From: Leptospiraceae bacterium
GTDB taxonomy: Bacteria > Spirochaetota > Leptospiria > Leptospirales > Leptonemataceae
NCBI GenBank assembly: GCA_040217195.1
Contig: JAVJNR010000006.1
Span: 96,001 to 160,000, forward strand
Reading direction: 5' to 3'
Length of the DNA stretch: 64,000 bases
The translations under genes and the position numbers were made by a program. Shown here piece after piece: positions 3,126 through 45,919 of the stretch; the stretch's first letter is position 1, and every line of letters starts with the position of its first letter. The notes below the pieces were generated by a model. The model saw only the letters and a list, made by a program, of their open reading frames with translations, did no database searches and was not told the DNA's origin.

Positions 3126-4136
3126 ATGAGTTCTACAAATACACAGATTAAGTTAGCAGCCCGGCCCACTGGAATGCCAGGTCCGGATTGCTGGAAATTG
3201 GATACGGCGGATCGACCTTCTGCTGGGGAAGGAGAGGTTTTGCTCCAAATTCTTCAGATTTCTCTGGATCCGGCCATGCGTGGATGGATGAATGAGGCCA
3301 GATCCTACGTCCCTCCAGTTCGAATTAACCAGGTCATGCGCGCACTGACTCTCAGTCGAGTGGTGGAGTCCAATGCTCCAGAATTCAAGGTAGGTGATCT
3401 GGTGACTGGTTCCCAGGGAGTACAGGAATTCGCAGTGGCCAAGCCCGCGGATTTGACAAAGGTGGATTCCAGCATTGCTGATCCGTCCCGGTATCTAAGC
3501 GTTCTGGGTATGACCGGAATGACAGCTTATTTTGGTCTGTTCGACGTTGGTCAGCCGAAGCCGGACGATGTAGTGGTTGTTTCCGGAGCAGCAGGCGCTG
3601 TGGGGCAGATTGTAGGTCAGCTGGCTAAGATCCATGGATGCAAAACCATTGGGATTGCTGGCGGCGAAGAAAAATGCAAATTCCTTACGGATGAAATCGG
3701 ATTCGACCATTCCATCGATTACAAATCCCAGAATGTGGCCAAAGAAATTCGCCGTTATGCGAAAAAGGGCCTGGATGTCTATTTCGATAACGTTGGCGGC
3801 GAAATTCTGGAAGCAGCTCTATTCAATCTGAATCGCGGCGCTCGAATTGTCATTTGTGGTGCCATCTCCCAGTATAATACTACGGATGTGCAAGGACCTC
3901 GAAACTACCTTTCACTGCTAGTGAACCGAGCGCGAATGGAAGGTATGGTTGTATTTGATTATGCCGATCGTTACGGCGAAGCCGTACAGAAGATGGCCGG
4001 CTGGTTAAAAGAAGGCAAATTGAAGTCCAGAGAAGATATAGTAAAAGGTAAGGTTGCGGATTTTCCGGATACATTTCTAAAACTATTCTCAGGCGCGAAC
4101 CTGGGAAAGCTGATTCTAGAAATCGAAAGTCTTTAG
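3126..4136 (+). CDS. NADP-dependent oxidoreductase (prostaglandin reductase / CurA-YncB family, MDR)
   Basis: SLDPAMRGWM, LGMTGMTAYFGL, VSGAAGAVG, DVYFDNVGG, CGAISQYN. Confidence 0.92.
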   Translation: MSSTNTQIKLAARPTGMPGPDCWKLDTADRPSAGEGEVLLQILQISLDPAMRGWMNEARSYVPPVRINQVMRALTLSRVVESNAPEFKVGDLVTGSQGVQEFAVAKPADLTKVDSSIADPSRYLSVLGMTGMTAYFGLFDVGQPKPDDVVVVSGAAGAVGQIVGQLAKIHGCKTIGIAGGEEKCKFLTDEIGFDHSIDYKSQNVAKEIRRYAKKGLDVYFDNVGGEILEAALFNLNRGARIVICGAISQYNTTDVQGPRNYLSLLVNRARMEGMVVFDYADRYGEAVQKMAGWLKEGKLKSREDIVKGKVADFPDTFLKLFSGANLGKLILEIESL

Positions 4137-7604: not shown

Positions 7605-8477
7605 TTACTCATTGGAAGTAGACGTATCCAGAGTTGGTCCGGAATCATCCTTGAGAAAAACCCCGGAAAGAGCACGATTCATGGATTGGGTTGCCAGATA
7701 GATAAACCGCCTCACCGCATCCTGGATCTGTAACCCTTCTGGCCTTATGTTGGAGATACAATTCCTGCGTTCATCGGTTGTGCCCGACCGCGGTGCATAA
7801 GTCATATAAAGACCCATACTGTCCGGTGAGCTCAGGCCAGGCCGTTCTCCGATTAGTACGGCTACCAGCGCAGAATTGAGGATTTCTCCGACGGGGTCGC
7901 CAATGGCCACGCGTCCCTGTTCTACAATGCAAACTGGTCCAATGCGAAGGTCTTTCTTTTCATTCTGCAATAGGTTCTGGAAGGCTGCAATAAATGAAAC
8001 GGAATGATTCTGCACGGCTCTGGCCGATAGTCCGTCTGCAATAACAAATACTATGTCGAATCGAAAACCGCTGTCGTTGGGCGCCTTTTCCAGTTCCAGA
8101 TGATCTTTGAGACTCTGCTTACTTGCATCATTTAGCTTTCGACCCAGATCCGGCCGCTTCAGGTACAGGGAGCGGTGGCCGGCCTCACTGGAAAGCTTCA
8201 AGCAGTGCAGCCCTATCTTTTGCAGATCTTCTTGCAGACCTGTAGCATCCATGGAGCTGTGAATTGCATCTCTGGCTCTGGAATGATCCAGCTGAAAAGA
8301 AAGCATGGCACTGGTAGGTTGCGATGCACCGCTTCGTCCCAGCGCGATACGGGCAGCAGTGAGGGATTTCAATGCAGTCCAGGTTTCGCCGGATTTTTCT
8401 ACGAACTCATTTCTGGAAGCGGATCTTAATTGATCCCCGGGCGAATCGTTCCCAAGTATTTCCTTACCTGAACTCAT
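7605..8477 (-). CDS. eutC: Ethanolamine ammonia-lyase light chain
   Basis: TAARIALGRSG, YLKRPDLGRKL, IADGLSA, LIGERPGLSSPDSMG, RNCISNIRPEG; ATGA overlap with the eutB stop. Confidence 0.95.
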   Translation of the reverse strand: MSSGKEILGNDSPGDQLRSASRNEFVEKSGETWTALKSLTAARIALGRSGASQPTSAMLSFQLDHSRARDAIHSSMDATGLQEDLQKIGLHCLKLSSEAGHRSLYLKRPDLGRKLNDASKQSLKDHLELEKAPNDSGFRFDIVFVIADGLSARAVQNHSVSFIAAFQNLLQNEKKDLRIGPVCIVEQGRVAIGDPVGEILNSALVAVLIGERPGLSSPDSMGLYMTYAPRSGTTDERRNCISNIRPEGLQIQDAVRRFIYLATQSMNRALSGVFLKDDSGPTLDTSTSNE

Positions 8478-40903: not shown

Positions 40904-41323
40904 TTGTTTCTGCTCGGGCAATGTGTCCTGGGCGTCTCCGGAGATGATACCATAAAGGCTGGAAAGGCGGCATCTCAGATGAACAAAGCCATTACTCTGG
41001 CATTACTTCGCTGCCAGGAAGAGAATGGTTCTCAACGGAGCCTTATTGGTACTCCCCCGCAACCGTGTATTGGAGCCACTGAGAAGCAGAAACTCCTCAG
41101 GAGAGACGATGTTGAAAAATGCATTAATACAATTCTATTCTGGCAGTGCAGCGGTGATATTACTCTTGATTCTTTTGCAATGAATCAGGTAGGGATTGGC
41201 TGTCCCGCGCGAAGTGATGCTTTCCTGTTTAACAATCTGGGGCCTCCATGGCAGGGGCACATTCTCTCTATCTCTTCGGGAGATAACGGAACCGGGGGTA
41301 CATTCTATTTCGCCTGTTTTTAG
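40904..41323 (+). CDS. Hypothetical Cys-rich lipoprotein, start unresolved
   Basis: LLGQ-C lipobox; the signal-like sequence continues upstream in frame without an ATG. Confidence 0.5.
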   Translation: MFLLGQCVLGVSGDDTIKAGKAASQMNKAITLALLRCQEENGSQRSLIGTPPQPCIGATEKQKLLRRDDVEKCINTILFWQCSGDITLDSFAMNQVGIGCPARSDAFLFNNLGPPWQGHILSISSGDNGTGGTFYFACF

Positions 41324-41679
41324 ATACTGGCGATGACAGTCATTGATTCCGGGATCTCCTCCTGGATTTCATCAATCGGAGGATCCACGATTTCCGGGTC
41401 TCTTATGCGAAAGCACCTGGTAGAGGTATCAGTCTGGGACCGTTGACTTTGAACCTGATATACAAAAACGTAAAGGTCTTCTGAACCTTCCTGTTTCAGG
41501 AGTTGTGCATTATTGGAAATACTGACGTCGTTGGCACTATGATAGGGATGTGCACTGATGGTTCCATGCATCCAGCGAACAATTGGCAGTTTACTCCGGC
41601 CTCTTCCGCGACTAAGGAATAGCCAGGTCTCATACTGATTTTCTGGGTGCCTGTCGAGGGTTAACTCTAAATTTTCCAT
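41320..41679 (-). CDS. Hypothetical protein
   Basis: ~119-aa ORF filling the gap with plausible composition; no motif recognised. Confidence 0.5.
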   Translation of the reverse strand: MENLELTLDRHPENQYETWLFLSRGRGRSKLPIVRWMHGTISAHPYHSANDVSISNNAQLLKQEGSEDLYVFVYQVQSQRSQTDTSTRCFRIRDPEIVDPPIDEIQEEIPESMTVIASI

Positions 41680-41739
41680 GAATGATTGCTGCCAATCGAC
41701 AAAGAGCAATAAGGGGAGTTGTCTTCTGGAAGGCTAGGC

Positions 41740-41961
41740 TTAAGAAACCATCGAGAATATAGGTTGCGGCTGGACTCCGTTCAAAGCTCCAGAGCTCACT
41801 ACTTGTCCGGTTAAAGAAAAAGGCCCGTGCTGGTTTTGTTCCAGACGGGCCCTGTGTTTGGCATTCCTTTTATAAGTCTTGCCCGATGGTTTTACTTTGT
41901 TGGGTGGTAGGGTCTGTTTTCGCGCCTGTGCGCGAATGACCTTCAAGGTTTCACGCTTCAT
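41740..41961 (-). CDS. Putative ArfA/BrfA-like alternative ribosome-rescue factor
   Basis: 73 aa, Lys/Arg-rich N-terminal half, motif KVKPSGKTYKRNAKH; internal terminator directly after the KH codons. Confidence 0.65.
   Translation of the reverse strand: MKRETLKVIRAQARKQTLPPNKVKPSGKTYKRNAKHRARLEQNQHGPFSLTGQVVSSGALNGVQPQPIFSMVS
41813..41853 (-). terminator. Intragenic intrinsic terminator
   Basis: RNA GGCCCGU-CUGG-aacaaaa-CCAG-c-ACGGGCC followed by UUUUUCUUU, about 70 nt before the ORF stop codon. Confidence 0.8.
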
Positions 41962-42481
41962 ATAATAATAGACGGACCTGCGCCGGGAAATTGCAAGATT
42001 TTTTCAACGAATTGCATTATCATGATCGATCATCGAAGATCGAAAATCGATGATCCTTGACCTCTGACTCTGAATCATACCTGCCAGGGATCATTACCTG
42101 CAGCATTCCTGTGTATGTTCGGAAGGAAGTTGGATTCATGGTCTCCTATTGCCGGGGTTTTGGGCCAGCTGAAAACGGAATAACGAACGTCCGACTAATT
42201 GAAATGGCCAGCCCGTAGATTGGGAGTTTTGGCCGGCGATGGGCCCATATCCAGATTCCACCGCTCCAGGCTGAATTTGAATCTATTTTTGCTATTTGTC
42301 CTGGCATGTGTAGATTCGCTTTTTCTTTGTCAGAATGACCTGGATTTTGCATCTGGTTTGAGTTAGTTCCTCGGGGCTCCGGGCGATTTTCTTAGCCGAT
42401 TGATTGTGCAAGTATTGAATCCTTAGTTGTTAATAGGCTACCCGGGGCTGGCATTTCCGTAGTCTTCAGGTCTCACAGCGA

Positions 42482-45400
42482 ATGGTTTCTCCAAAAACAA
42501 AAATTCTCGGAATAGCTCTGGCAGCCATTCTGCTTGGCCCTTCCTCCTCCTGCGTAAATGACTATCCGGACGAGCCGTTCTTACTGTTCAGCCCTCAGCT
42601 TGCCTTCACTCTGGGCGGTGAGGTCCTGGGATTGAATGGTAGTTTGACTCTATCGAATAATGGCACAGATTCTCTGGAAATCAGTTCAGACGGAGAGTTT
42701 CAATTCCCGAATCAGTACGCTTCCGGCAGTCCTTACAACGTTCAAATTACAGACTCTCCCATGAACCAGCAGTGTACTGTTAGCTCTGGAGACGGAGTGA
42801 TGCACGGCAATGTCACCACAGTCTTTGTTGAGTGCGAGGACACCGCAGTAACCATCGACAATATTCAGCGCCCCTATTTAAGCTCCCAGGGTGGAGCGCA
42901 CAATACATCCACTTTTGACTGGACTCCGGAATACACAGAGAATTTCGAGATTCGCATTGGAGCCGATTGTAGTACCGGCGCCCTCAGTACCTGGACAAAC
43001 AACTCCGGAACTACAACTACAGGAGTTCAGCAGACCAGTGGAATTAATCAGACAGATCTTGTGCCGGGCCCAAATACAATTCATGTTTGTATTCTGGACG
43101 GTTTTTCCAATGTAATCGATTCCAACAGCTTTACAATTGTGCGCGATGATGTAAGCCCCACCGTTACGCTTTCAGCGACCACCGGTAGTTTTGATTCTGC
43201 GCAGTCCATCAGTGTTACATGCACCGATTCTCCCAGCGGTTGTAATGCCACTGTATTCACTATTCAAGATGTGGCCCTTCCTGGAACGGCCAATCCGGCC
43301 GATCCAGCTGTTACTACGAATGGAACTCCTACCACAGGTGCCCTTTATTCAGTGCCTCTCAATGCGGCGAATCTTAGAAATACTCAGTTGGAAGTTATAG
43401 CAATTGATCGTGCCGGGAATCGATCTGCCATACAGATCGGGAATTACACCGTTGATACAACCTTGCCTGCTCTGACGATAACAGGGCTTACCAGAGACTT
43501 TATCAGCAACACAGCCGGCGCTCCGTACAACAGTTCGGATATCAGCTGGACTTCCAATCGGTCTAACCTGGATTACTTCATCTGGTACGGTGCCACCGAT
43601 TGCCAGGGTTCCGGAGGGACCTTGATTACAAATGGCACAACAGCCGGTGCAGGCGATACAATTACCATTAATGCGGCAGCCATTCCGGTGGGAGCCCAGA
43701 CCATCACTGTAGCCGAGAGAAACTTTGCGGGTTTTTACGGATGTCAGACCACCAGCCTGACGAGAGACGATACTCCGCCAACGGTGGTGGCCGGAGGAAC
43801 ATCGAACGGAGGGGCAATTGCGTATAATGGTGACATAGATATTCGGCTGAGTGAGCAGATCGACCCTGGCTCCATCTCGGTGGGTGGAGGAGACATGGAT
43901 GCTGAGGCCAGTCTGCCGCCAGTGATTGGCACTACCTCCAACCCGGATGATACAATTCAAATCTATCCCATGTCCAACTGGACAGCTGGCCTGGGTCGCA
44001 CTGTGGATGTTGATGTACGCGATCGGGCGGGAAATCTACTGACCTTGAATTGGAGCCTGGATCTGCCGGATGGAACGGTGGAACCCATGTATGCTGCAGC
44101 ACCTGACTGGAATCAACACATTAGAAATGATGGAAGCTTTATATATGATGCTGCAGGCACAGCCTGCGACGGTAGCGAAACTGGATTCATAACAGCCTGC
44201 CTGCATGGCGGAGAACTTAGAAAAGTGCAGGTTCTTAATGAAACCAGCTGCGCCGGGCTTACGGCCACCGATACCAATGGATGGTTTGAATGGGCCTGTT
44301 ACGATCCTCCCGGGCCGGGGCCTGTGGAAATGTATACAATTCGCAGAAGTAGTTCACTGCGTCAGTATATCAACTTTGGTACCCAGGTCTGGCTGACCAA
44401 TGACGTTAACGTAAGTAATGGATTTAGCACTCCGGCCACGGCCTGGTGGGGAAATCCAATTCAAGCTGTGCCTTCCACCGGGATTAGCATGAATACATCG
44501 GGTGCCATATATGTTACGACTGGTAATGTGACTATGACCGGCGCTATTTCTGCGCTAAGCGACAATGTGTCCTTTGTATCTGCGCCGGGAACATCCATTC
44601 TGACAAATGTGGCGGCTCATCAAATCAGCGTGAACAATCAACGATTTGTCTGGCTCGAGGCTACCATGAATCATATAGATGGTACCGGTTCTTCTTCGGG
44701 CATTTTTATCCGGGATTCTGCCTTTATTACTGTAGAAAACTCTAAATTGGCCAATTACCGTGGCTTCAGCAACACAGGTCAAATTCGCATAATCCATAGC
44801 CGGGCTCTATTGCTACGTAACCTCATCGTGGCCAACAATCCAGGCGAACACGGCATCAGTTTTTATGCAGATACTTCAGACAGTCACCATGTTTGGATCG
44901 ATCGGTCTCGAATCTTCAATAACGCCGCTCATGGGCTCTATTACCGGTCCCAGGGTGCCAATGTAGTTCGCGACATGCTGGTTACGCGCTCCATGATTCA
45001 CAACAACGACGGCGGCGGTCTCTACGCAAACCGGGGGATTGCCAATTCCCTGATTATGAACTCCCTATTTGCCAACAATGGCGGTACCGGCGTAAATCTA
45101 TTTGGCACCGGGCCTTCGGGCGGAAATAATACCATGGTCAACATAGTATCGATCAACAATGCCGGTGGTGGCATAGTGCCCGGCGACAACAGTCAGTTTA
45201 TCAATCTCGGGCTTTCTGACAATGGTGGCGCTGACGTGATGGCACCGGCGGGAACCGGTAATTATTATTCCGGGGAGCTTTATTCAGGTACTACCGGAAT
45301 TGGCGACAATGCGGATGGTCGATGTATCTCCTCCGGAGCCGGTTCAGGCATGGCTAACGATGATGATTGTTCACCGGAAGGGCCTTCCGACCATACTGTA

Positions 45401-45919
45401 GTTAGCGCTTTCGATCTTGCAGATCAGTTTGTGGGTCCGAACGGTGGGGCCGGGCTCTATAATATTGGAAATAACTGGTTTGCTGTGGCCAATGATTATT
45501 CCGGAATCGGCAACTCTTCCACACTTGTGCCGGCATATCCGGCCAATAGCTACCGGGAACGATGCGATGGCACATTGTTGACCGGATGTCGCGAGTTTGA
45601 TTGGCACCTCGTGAATTCAGCTCCTTCTCCTGGATTTCGTAACGCTTTAAGCTGTCCGGATGGACTTTCGGTGCAGGATGTTACTCATACTTTTTCATCT
45701 GGTAGCTATACTTTTTTGAGAAACTCTTATGCTCTGGAAACAGATGCCCAGTGGGATCTACCTATGTGCATGGGAAATGAAGCCTGTCTATATACTCCCA
45801 ATCTTGGTCCCTACCAGGGCCATGCAGGGCTTACAGATTCCGGCTGTCCGGACCTGGCCGGTCACCCCACCTTTGGTAACGTGGATCTCCAGGAATTCGG
45901 AACCAACGGTGTGCCCTGA
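42482..45919 (+). CDS. Large surface lipoprotein with Ig-like domains and right-handed beta-helix
   Basis: PSSS-C lipobox; Thr/Gly/Asn-rich; two DRAGN Ig-like motifs; Asn-ladder repeats (IFNNAAHGL, IHNNDGGGL, FANNGGTGV, INNAGGGI); Cys-rich C-terminus. Confidence 0.8.
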   Translation: MVSPKTKILGIALAAILLGPSSSCVNDYPDEPFLLFSPQLAFTLGGEVLGLNGSLTLSNNGTDSLEISSDGEFQFPNQYASGSPYNVQITDSPMNQQCTVSSGDGVMHGNVTTVFVECEDTAVTIDNIQRPYLSSQGGAHNTSTFDWTPEYTENFEIRIGADCSTGALSTWTNNSGTTTTGVQQTSGINQTDLVPGPNTIHVCILDGFSNVIDSNSFTIVRDDVSPTVTLSATTGSFDSAQSISVTCTDSPSGCNATVFTIQDVALPGTANPADPAVTTNGTPTTGALYSVPLNAANLRNTQLEVIAIDRAGNRSAIQIGNYTVDTTLPALTITGLTRDFISNTAGAPYNSSDISWTSNRSNLDYFIWYGATDCQGSGGTLITNGTTAGAGDTITINAAAIPVGAQTITVAERNFAGFYGCQTTSLTRDDTPPTVVAGGTSNGGAIAYNGDIDIRLSEQIDPGSISVGGGDMDAEASLPPVIGTTSNPDDTIQIYPMSNWTAGLGRTVDVDVRDRAGNLLTLNWSLDLPDGTVEPMYAAAPDWNQHIRNDGSFIYDAAGTACDGSETGFITACLHGGELRKVQVLNETSCAGLTATDTNGWFEWACYDPPGPGPVEMYTIRRSSSLRQYINFGTQVWLTNDVNVSNGFSTPATAWWGNPIQAVPSTGISMNTSGAIYVTTGNVTMTGAISALSDNVSFVSAPGTSILTNVAAHQISVNNQRFVWLEATMNHIDGTGSSSGIFIRDSAFITVENSKLANYRGFSNTGQIRIIHSRALLLRNLIVANNPGEHGISFYADTSDSHHVWIDRSRIFNNAAHGLYYRSQGANVVRDMLVTRSMIHNNDGGGLYANRGIANSLIMNSLFANNGGTGVNLFGTGPSGGNNTMVNIVSINNAGGGIVPGDNSQFINLGLSDNGGADVMAPAGTGNYYSGELYSGTTGIGDNADGRCISSGAGSGMANDDDCSPEGPSDHTVVSAFDLADQFVGPNGGAGLYNIGNNWFAVANDYSGIGNSSTLVPAYPANSYRERCDGTLLTGCREFDWHLVNSAPSPGFRNALSCPDGLSVQDVTHTFSSGSYTFLRNSYALETDAQWDLPMCMGNEACLYTPNLGPYQGHAGLTDSGCPDLAGHPTFGNVDLQEFGTNGVP

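Follow-up and report, generated by a model that had tools for sequence, protein, structure and literature searches.

How do spirochaetes free ribosomes that have reached the end of a message without a stop codon when trans-translation fails? The release of such non-stop ribosomes is considered essential, and the question is raised by a small gene in the genome of a Leptospiraceae bacterium (assembly GCA_040217195.1), located in a stretch of 64,000 nucleotides of contig JAVJNR010000006.1 (positions 96,001 to 160,000) that was analysed as a whole and is referred to here as the window. The gene is an open reading frame (ORF) of 73 codons on the minus strand (41740-41961), coding for 73 amino acids, and it holds a terminator hairpin within its own reading frame. 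Judged from its sequence features, this mini-gene is on balance a likely candidate for a rescue factor that depends on a release factor (RF), would be made from a non-stop mRNA and would be gated by transfer-messenger RNA (tmRNA). According to the available text of PMC8012679 and of PMC11633108, the latter a survey of >15,000 genomes, ArfA is found in beta- and gammaproteobacteria only and BrfA in the B. subtilis group only; the 2024 survey gives for Spirochaetota ArfA in 0/108, BrfA in 0/108 and ArfB in 16/108 genomes (PMC11633108). By these counts most spirochaetes have none of the three as a back-up of tmRNA, and a literature search, with subscription journals outside its coverage, returned nothing on ArfA or ArfA-like factors in spirochaetes or Leptospira among the papers listed.

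Re-reading of the ORFs returned the 73-codon frame on the minus strand as originally predicted. Its conserved peptide core, codons 1-36 (MKRETLKVIRAQARKQTLPPNKVKPSGKTYKRNAKH; 41854..41961, minus strand), is predicted to consist of a helix at residues 3-15 and an extended basic segment, with residues 22-36 reading KVKPSGKTYKRNAKH. The core ends in the motif K-x-Y-x-R-x-x-K-H, residues 28-36 (41854..41880, minus strand), a proposed mRNA-channel binder that is aligned by hhalign to KGSYMRKGKH of ArfA. Directly 3' of the codon for His36 begins the terminator hairpin (41821..41853, minus strand), with 13 pairs and one bulged C, the 5' arm at 41853-41841, the loop at 41840-41834 and the 3' arm at 41833-41821, followed by the U-tract UUUUUCUUU (41813..41821, minus strand), which spans codons 47-50 and stands 23 codons ahead of the in-frame stop. 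The stem and U-tract (41853-41813) proposed from a first inspection of the sequence, right after the Lys-His codons and before the stop codon, thereby hold, the stem having grown from 11 bp to 13 pairs and a bulge. The minimum free energy of the hairpin is −23.7 kcal/mol (z = −3.25), with 0/200 shuffled sequences equally stable; a simple terminator scan, which is intolerant of bulges, did not detect it because of the bulged C. The 3' end of the transcript is predicted near codons 48-50, and the unconserved read-through tail, codons 51-73 plus stop (41740..41811, minus strand), which varies within the genus, most likely lies outside the mRNA.

The mini-ORF is a real gene, with purifying selection acting on codons 1-36 at the protein level. 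Six-frame translations of 40 relatives contained the peptide in 6/6 of the other same-genus genomes (identity 81-94%), with weaker matches in other genera; the same-genus matches span residues 1-51 to 1-59 only, one copy being cut at residue 26 by the end of its contig. Over codons 1-36, the synonymous and non-synonymous differences between the window and five other orthologues stand at 8:0, 10:3, 10:3, 7:3 and 10:4. For the same codons, the non-synonymous divergence (dN) of all orthologue pairs is 0-0.10 and the synonymous divergence (dS) 0.37-1.15, the latter range excluding one near-identical pair (dS 0.04), and dS between the window and its orthologues is 0.37-0.78. Over the hairpin codons 37-50, dS falls to 0-0.25 between the window and five orthologues and to 0-0.42 over all pairs, a suppression that is expected of a constraint at the RNA level superimposed on the reading frame. 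Past the U-tract the sequence differs in every genome of the genus, the tails are unalignable, and the stop is found 5 to 37 codons beyond residue 49 across six genomes. It had been proposed that homologues would keep residues 1-36 and the hairpin and lose the tail, and this is how they turned out, far beyond the genus.

The build recurs in other lineages. A tolerant scan for a hairpin of ≤ −8 kcal/mol with a U-rich tract starting 25-70 nucleotides past the Tyr codon and ≥4 nucleotides before the stop was passed by 54/60 homologous loci, compared with 115/1200 shuffles (9.6%); a stricter first version was passed by 42/60 loci and 89/1200 shuffles. As for the failures, the stop and the end of the U-tract overlap in G018, the anchor was misplaced in L092, where a hairpin is visible by eye, G021 has a hairpin without a U-tract, and G009, G046 and G213 have an ordinary stop a few codons past Lys-His. 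At the loci of these last three genomes (L037, L030 and L103, respectively) the stop lies 5-9 codons past Lys-His and no hairpin is found; their products of ~41-45 residues are close in length to the truncated product expected elsewhere, and to judge from this length such relatives may represent a constitutive version of the same protein. The stems outside the genus are unrelated between lineages and begin at or just past the basic motif, with a U-rich tract to follow; examples are GGGTCGCTTTTCG in G015, GACCGG in G013, G018 and G050, ATTCCCGAAAAGG or CTCTATTCTCGAA in Leptospira, and AAGAGGAGG or AAAGGGGTATGA in other families. Lys, Arg and Gly codons make up the 5' arm in many lineages, where the 3' arm and U-tract encode a recurrent ...S-S/P-F-F tail, which is why F48 appears near-invariant in the family alignment. 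RNAalifold predicts 13 pairs, 3 of them with compensatory changes, in an alignment of saprophytic Leptospira; applied to a MAFFT alignment of the hairpin regions of 19 mixed lineages it found no shared structure, the stems being of different sequence and length. A search of Rfam at an expect value (E) of up to 1 gave no match in 41000-42600. Along these lines, the family displays the design of arfA and brfA, that is, a conserved hairpin inside the ORF upstream of the stop, with a conserved part before it and a variable part after.

The mini-gene was found in 37/156 Leptospirales genomes with a first profile built from ten members, and in 53/401 sampled Spirochaetota genomes with a wider profile of 23 members. 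By genus, the wider profile gave 30/30 genomes in g22 (Leptospira), 3/4 in g28, 0/19 in g20 and 0/20 in g21, and members were also present in six further families. The named carriers are saprophytic Leptospira, among them L. yanagawae, L. vanthielii, L. jelokensis, L. kemamanensis and L. ognonensis, and the window comes from an uncultured marine organism of the Leptospirales, the sequencing runs that hold the stretch being marine metagenomes. Where any annotation exists, the product is called a 'hypothetical protein'. From these genome sequences, the stop-less mini-gene family is conserved across the phylum, in which none of this type was known before.

What, then, would set the start of the message? 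A −35-like hexamer TTGCAA (41991..41996, minus strand), read from the sequence, may belong to the gene's own promoter together with a −10-like hexamer TCTATT (41967..41972, minus strand), which is placed 18 nucleotides past it and 5 nucleotides ahead of the ATG. The consensus promoter scan of the window did not pick up TTGCAA; a TTGC-type hexamer recurs at equal distance in other genomes of the genus, and among the same-genus copies a hexamer TC(T/C)A(A/T)T precedes the ATG by 5 nucleotides in 5 and by 6 in 1. A Shine-Dalgarno sequence is absent from all same-genus copies; GGAGG is found upstream of the mini-gene in other genera. Because the −10-like hexamer is so close to the ATG and a Shine-Dalgarno sequence is lacking, a leaderless mRNA is suggested for the genus of the window, such that the message of ~150 nucleotides may be leaderless as well as stop-less.

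The relation of the peptide to ArfA is best discussed residue by residue. Across the 23 family sequences Y30 and R32 never vary, and R14, K22 and K28 hardly do; the Lys-His pair is almost always kept in the window's family and in spirochaetes other than Leptospira. The AlphaFold2 model shows an N-terminal helix at residues 3-15, with a predicted local distance difference test score (pLDDT) of about 90, and an extended remainder. In ArfA, a hydrophobic N-terminal minidomain (L19, L24, F25) binds the switch loop of RF2; no such minidomain is found in the mini-protein, where the predicted helix 3-15, amphipathic in character, stands instead. Profile-profile alignment by hhalign placed P20-Q43 in register with ArfA V29-W51 (E 0.0004, probability 35%), and alignment to the single E. 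coli ArfA sequence gave E 0.0013 and a probability of 19%. Residues 31-48 of ArfA are described as lying in the mRNA tunnel, and the protein as active when truncated at N47 and inactive when cut after M40 (bioRxiv 091256, in the portion available); the Lys-His pair common to ArfA and BrfA is reported to contact U534 of 16S rRNA (PMC6881298). In the ArfA-like basic peptide originally predicted, the basic segment can thus be aligned in register with the tunnel segment of ArfA; the mini-ORF protein is not a member of Pfam ArfA as defined. PF03889 was unmatched in any of the 23 family members and in a six-frame search of the whole genome, and the positive control, E. coli ArfA taken from NC_000913.3 (L057:4432-4650, minus strand), scored 89.5 bits against it. 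A match of the mini-ORF protein to Pfam CBP_BcsF (E 0.4) was dismissed as noise.

The rescue systems encoded by the host, whose genome is 93.66% complete, agree with a back-up role for the peptide. The tmRNA is present (162.3 bits), with the tag ANNEHALAA, as are SmpB, RF2 with its SPF motif and RF1 with its PVT motif; at the given completeness, neither a third RF-1-domain gene of ArfB or PrfH type nor NFACT_N (RqcH) was found. Within the window's family a third RF-1-domain gene occurs in 1/15 genomes with the mini-gene versus 13/27 without, a contrast between genomes that are kin and not independent, to be taken as a hint and not as a test. The predicted complex of the peptide with the genome's RF2 reached a median score of 0.24, below the mark of 0.32, in a calculation without controls, and speaks neither for nor against binding. 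The RF2 gene itself (L048 787-1962, G000:C2) is one uninterrupted frame of 391 codons. Many prfB genes contain a programmed +1 frameshift; from its continuous frame, the RF2 gene studied here seems to need none.

The mechanism that can be proposed on this basis runs as follows. Transcription would start at the gene's own promoter, the first transcribed nucleotides in this genus probably being those of the AUG, and would end at the intrinsic terminator right after the Lys-His codons; since that terminator precedes the stop, the message would carry no stop codon, and its product would be a basic peptide of about 48-50 residues. Ribosomes arriving at the 3' end of this mRNA would normally be resolved by tmRNA-SmpB, with the peptide tagged with ANNEHALAA and degraded. 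Once trans-translation is saturated or lost, untagged peptide would accumulate and might act like ArfA or BrfA: the extended K/R-rich segment with its invariant Tyr and Arg and its Lys-His would slide into the vacant mRNA channel of ribosomes stalled on truncated messages, and the N-terminal helix and Pro-rich linker would bring in a release factor of class I, RF2 being the likeliest, resulting in hydrolysis of the peptidyl-tRNA. We infer the 3' end of the transcript, the tagging by tmRNA, the binding to the ribosome and the recruitment of the release factor from sequence. As a candidate, the divergent spirochaete back-up system envisaged at the outset gains support from the conserved core and hairpin, the ArfA motif in register, the presence of tmRNA, SmpB and RF2, and the lack of a detectable ArfB or RqcH.

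Several observations weigh against this assignment. The mini-ORF protein does not match PF03889 (gathering cut-off 25.5 bits) at E up to 10, nor does it match the NCBIfam models, and a profile search of the chain sequences in the PDB returned 0 matches at E up to 10, the ArfA and BrfA chains not being recovered. The likeness to ArfA is confined to a basic motif of 23 columns (22-23), short, compositionally biased and of modest statistics, and the N-terminal halves of the mini-protein and ArfA were left unaligned by hhalign. In Leptospira members Lys-His is replaced (KGKND, KKKED), and in Leptospira genomes with the mini-gene a third RF-1-domain gene is present as well; because of this co-occurrence, the complementarity with ArfB is only partial. 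An ordinary stop follows shortly past Lys-His in two genomes of genus g4 and in G213, and ordinary stops are perhaps found in ~2/3 of 91 database representatives, a rough figure read from protein tails, not from DNA; because of such relatives, the non-stop design is not universal in the wider superfamily. The hairpin of saprophytic Leptospira could also terminate a neighbouring antiporter gene. Finally, part of the stretch is held by 20/22 listed sequencing runs, one of them an RNA library, and, with read coverage judged from four runs, the RNA-library contigs cover 41356-41660 only, which is the downstream ORF and not the mini-gene; the DNA contigs of two runs are without cover over roughly 41675-41869.

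Matches over the basic motif were also obtained outside ArfA. DUF7230 (PF23876, cut-off 27 bits) gave sub-threshold matches over this motif in 4/23 family members (best E 5e-05, 23.8 bits) and matched 29/81 database relatives scanned at E up to 0.1, one of them above the cut-off (P0191, 29.3 bits); the window protein itself gave no DUF7230 match, and in the ESM Atlas the closest cluster bears the name DUF7230 (score 0.91). Weak matches over the basic motif were also obtained to the phage families phrog_2701, phrog_6310, phrog_18092 and phrog_37108; a tblastn search with the window peptide and P0191 against 50,697 phage records gave no match. E. coli ArfA, for its part, weakly matches DUF7230 (E 0.11, same part) and phrog_37108 (E 0.0027), as do the relatives of the spirochaete peptide, and these weak matches may link ArfA, DUF7230 and small phage proteins. 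DUF7230 was unmentioned in the literature searched, subscription journals lying outside its coverage. It can be proposed tentatively, as an idea that is doubtful and still worth keeping in mind, that the spirochaete peptides, DUF7230, the phage families and proteobacterial ArfA form one old, widespread superfamily of mRNA-channel sensors built around K-x-Y-x-R-K-x-K-H, whose lineages would have switched repeatedly between tmRNA-gated stop-less and constitutive own-stop builds. If so, ArfA would merely be the first branch to have been recognised, and RF-dependent rescue would be far more widespread among bacteria and phages than its presently recognised range of beta- and gammaproteobacteria and Bacillus.

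A different role for a tmRNA-gated non-stop peptide has to be considered, one in which it would, as a protein that binds ribosomes or RNA, silence, protect or hibernate ribosomes, or would signal translation stress when trans-translation fails. All evidence for the stop-less design fits such a peptide equally well, the predicted complex with RF2 ties it to no release factor, and the wider superfamily of DUF7230-like and phage proteins, many with ordinary stops, fits a general small basic RNA-binding module. On the other hand, the sole characterised genes of stop-less design, arfA and brfA, encode rescue factors according to the available text of PMC8012679 and PMC6881298, both the match to ArfA's tunnel segment, which is in register, and the Lys-His pair suggest a place in the mRNA channel, and the genome has no other known back-up of tmRNA among those searched (PF03889, third RF-1-domain gene, NFACT_N). 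Taken together, another role is regarded as rather unlikely, and an RF-dependent rescue factor is preferred.

Could the hairpin instead serve, or mean, something more ordinary? In a small protein gene of the usual kind the hairpin would be inefficient, the full product of 73 residues would be made, and the position of the terminator would be incidental; some relatives of the mini-gene do have normal stops, and in a few loci (G018) the stop overlaps or closely follows the U-tract. This explanation is very unlikely in view of the tails, whose sequence and length vary even inside the genus although the nucleotides of the hairpin are kept, and of the recurrence of a stop after the U-tract in 54/60 loci from distant lineages with unrelated stems. 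Scarcely any weight can be given to a leader peptide or attenuator, in which translation through the hairpin would control read-through into a downstream gene. A ribosome translating the 5' arm would indeed block formation of the hairpin, and a co-oriented ORF of 118-153 residues follows in 5/6 same-genus genomes scanned; this downstream gene, however, is not conserved between genera, where the next gene is mostly convergent (a KefB-like antiporter gene on the opposite strand in 26 Leptospira loci), another promoter-like site is found past the terminator, ahead of the next gene, and strong purifying selection on a basic sequence of 36 residues is unexpected for a leader peptide. Since no downstream gene is conserved, a leader peptide was discarded as an explanation for the family in general.

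The surroundings of the mini-gene are conserved to a variable extent. The downstream co-oriented ORF (41320..41709, minus strand; probable ATG at 41679) stands beside the mini-gene in 5/6 scannable same-genus genomes and, in the window, has ~119-129 residues with the motif HPE..YE.WLFLSRG.G; it is not next to the mini-gene in other genera and is not part of the mini-gene device. A sigma-70-like promoter, TTGAAC-17-TATATT, is located in the tail (41756..41784, minus strand), a consensus match only (9/12 matches in a consensus scan), which likely serves the next gene. There is no conserved partner gene, the next gene being convergent on the mini-gene in most lineages, including G015, G050 and G021. 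In Leptospira the mini-gene is found between a cyclophilin gene and the convergent gene of the KefB-like antiporter (26-27 loci); at loci L060-L088 the hairpin is placed just past the 3' end of the antiporter gene, with an A-rich run ahead of it, and from this arrangement it may be a two-way terminator for both genes. Divergent from the mini-gene runs the gene of a protein of 1145 residues (42482-45919, plus strand), which is conserved in the genus and has a signal-peptide-like N-terminus and long repeats rich in Gly, Asn, Ser and Thr. Its orthologue in G005, encoding a secreted or surface-type protein of 1168 residues, is flanked by two copies of the mini-gene (L058, G005:C4:3216000-3228000; at 3776-4132 and 8057-8224): the second copy, 56% identical and 4 kb away, has its own hairpin and U-tract and shows Lys-Pro in place of Lys-His.

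The mini-gene family offers a concrete, phylum-wide candidate for the back-up of tmRNA in spirochaetes. If the assignment as an RF-dependent rescue factor is true, it would be a further instance, independent or very distant, of a rescue factor made from a stop-less message, and it would lend weight to the expectation voiced by the authors of the BrfA study that rescue systems still await identification in many bacteria (PMC6881298). The carriers include named, cultivable saprophytic Leptospira, and the idea is therefore open to direct testing at the bench.

In comparison with the known systems, the candidate shares several features with ArfA (YhdL, PF03889), the RF2-dependent rescue factor of gamma- and betaproteobacteria, from which it differs in its host phylum. 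Both are small and have no GGQ motif, both mRNAs would lose the stop codon through a hairpin inside the ORF, KGSYMRKGKH of E. coli and KTYKRNAKH of the spirochaete peptide are aligned in register by hhalign, and ~10-14 residues would follow Lys-His in the expected product. The Lys-His pair is found at positions 44-45 in E. coli and at 35-36 here. The arfA mRNA of E. coli is reported to be cleaved by RNase III at its hairpin; in the mini-gene, an intrinsic terminator followed by a U-tract is predicted to take the place of that cleavage. Back-up rescue of non-stop ribosomes is also the task of ArfB (YaeJ) and of ArfT from Francisella tularensis; ArfT has no GGQ motif and recruits a release factor. 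The back-up role proposed here, for what is a candidate only, resembles that of ArfT, which to our knowledge has not been reported as the product of a non-stop mRNA, and ArfB differs by its own GGQ (RF-1) domain, no such third gene being found in the window's genome. BrfA (YqkK) of B. subtilis is confined to a subset of the Bacillaceae, and no sequence relation to it emerged when PDB chains, BrfA complexes among them, were searched with the profile. Its gene is described as having a rho-independent terminator in the coding region, with ~62/71 codons translated and the level kept low by tmRNA, and the protein as combining N-terminal helices with a basic C-terminal segment in the mRNA channel (available text of PMC6881298); it is this layout that the predicted N-terminal helix 3-15 of the spirochaete peptide would fit, more closely than that of ArfA.
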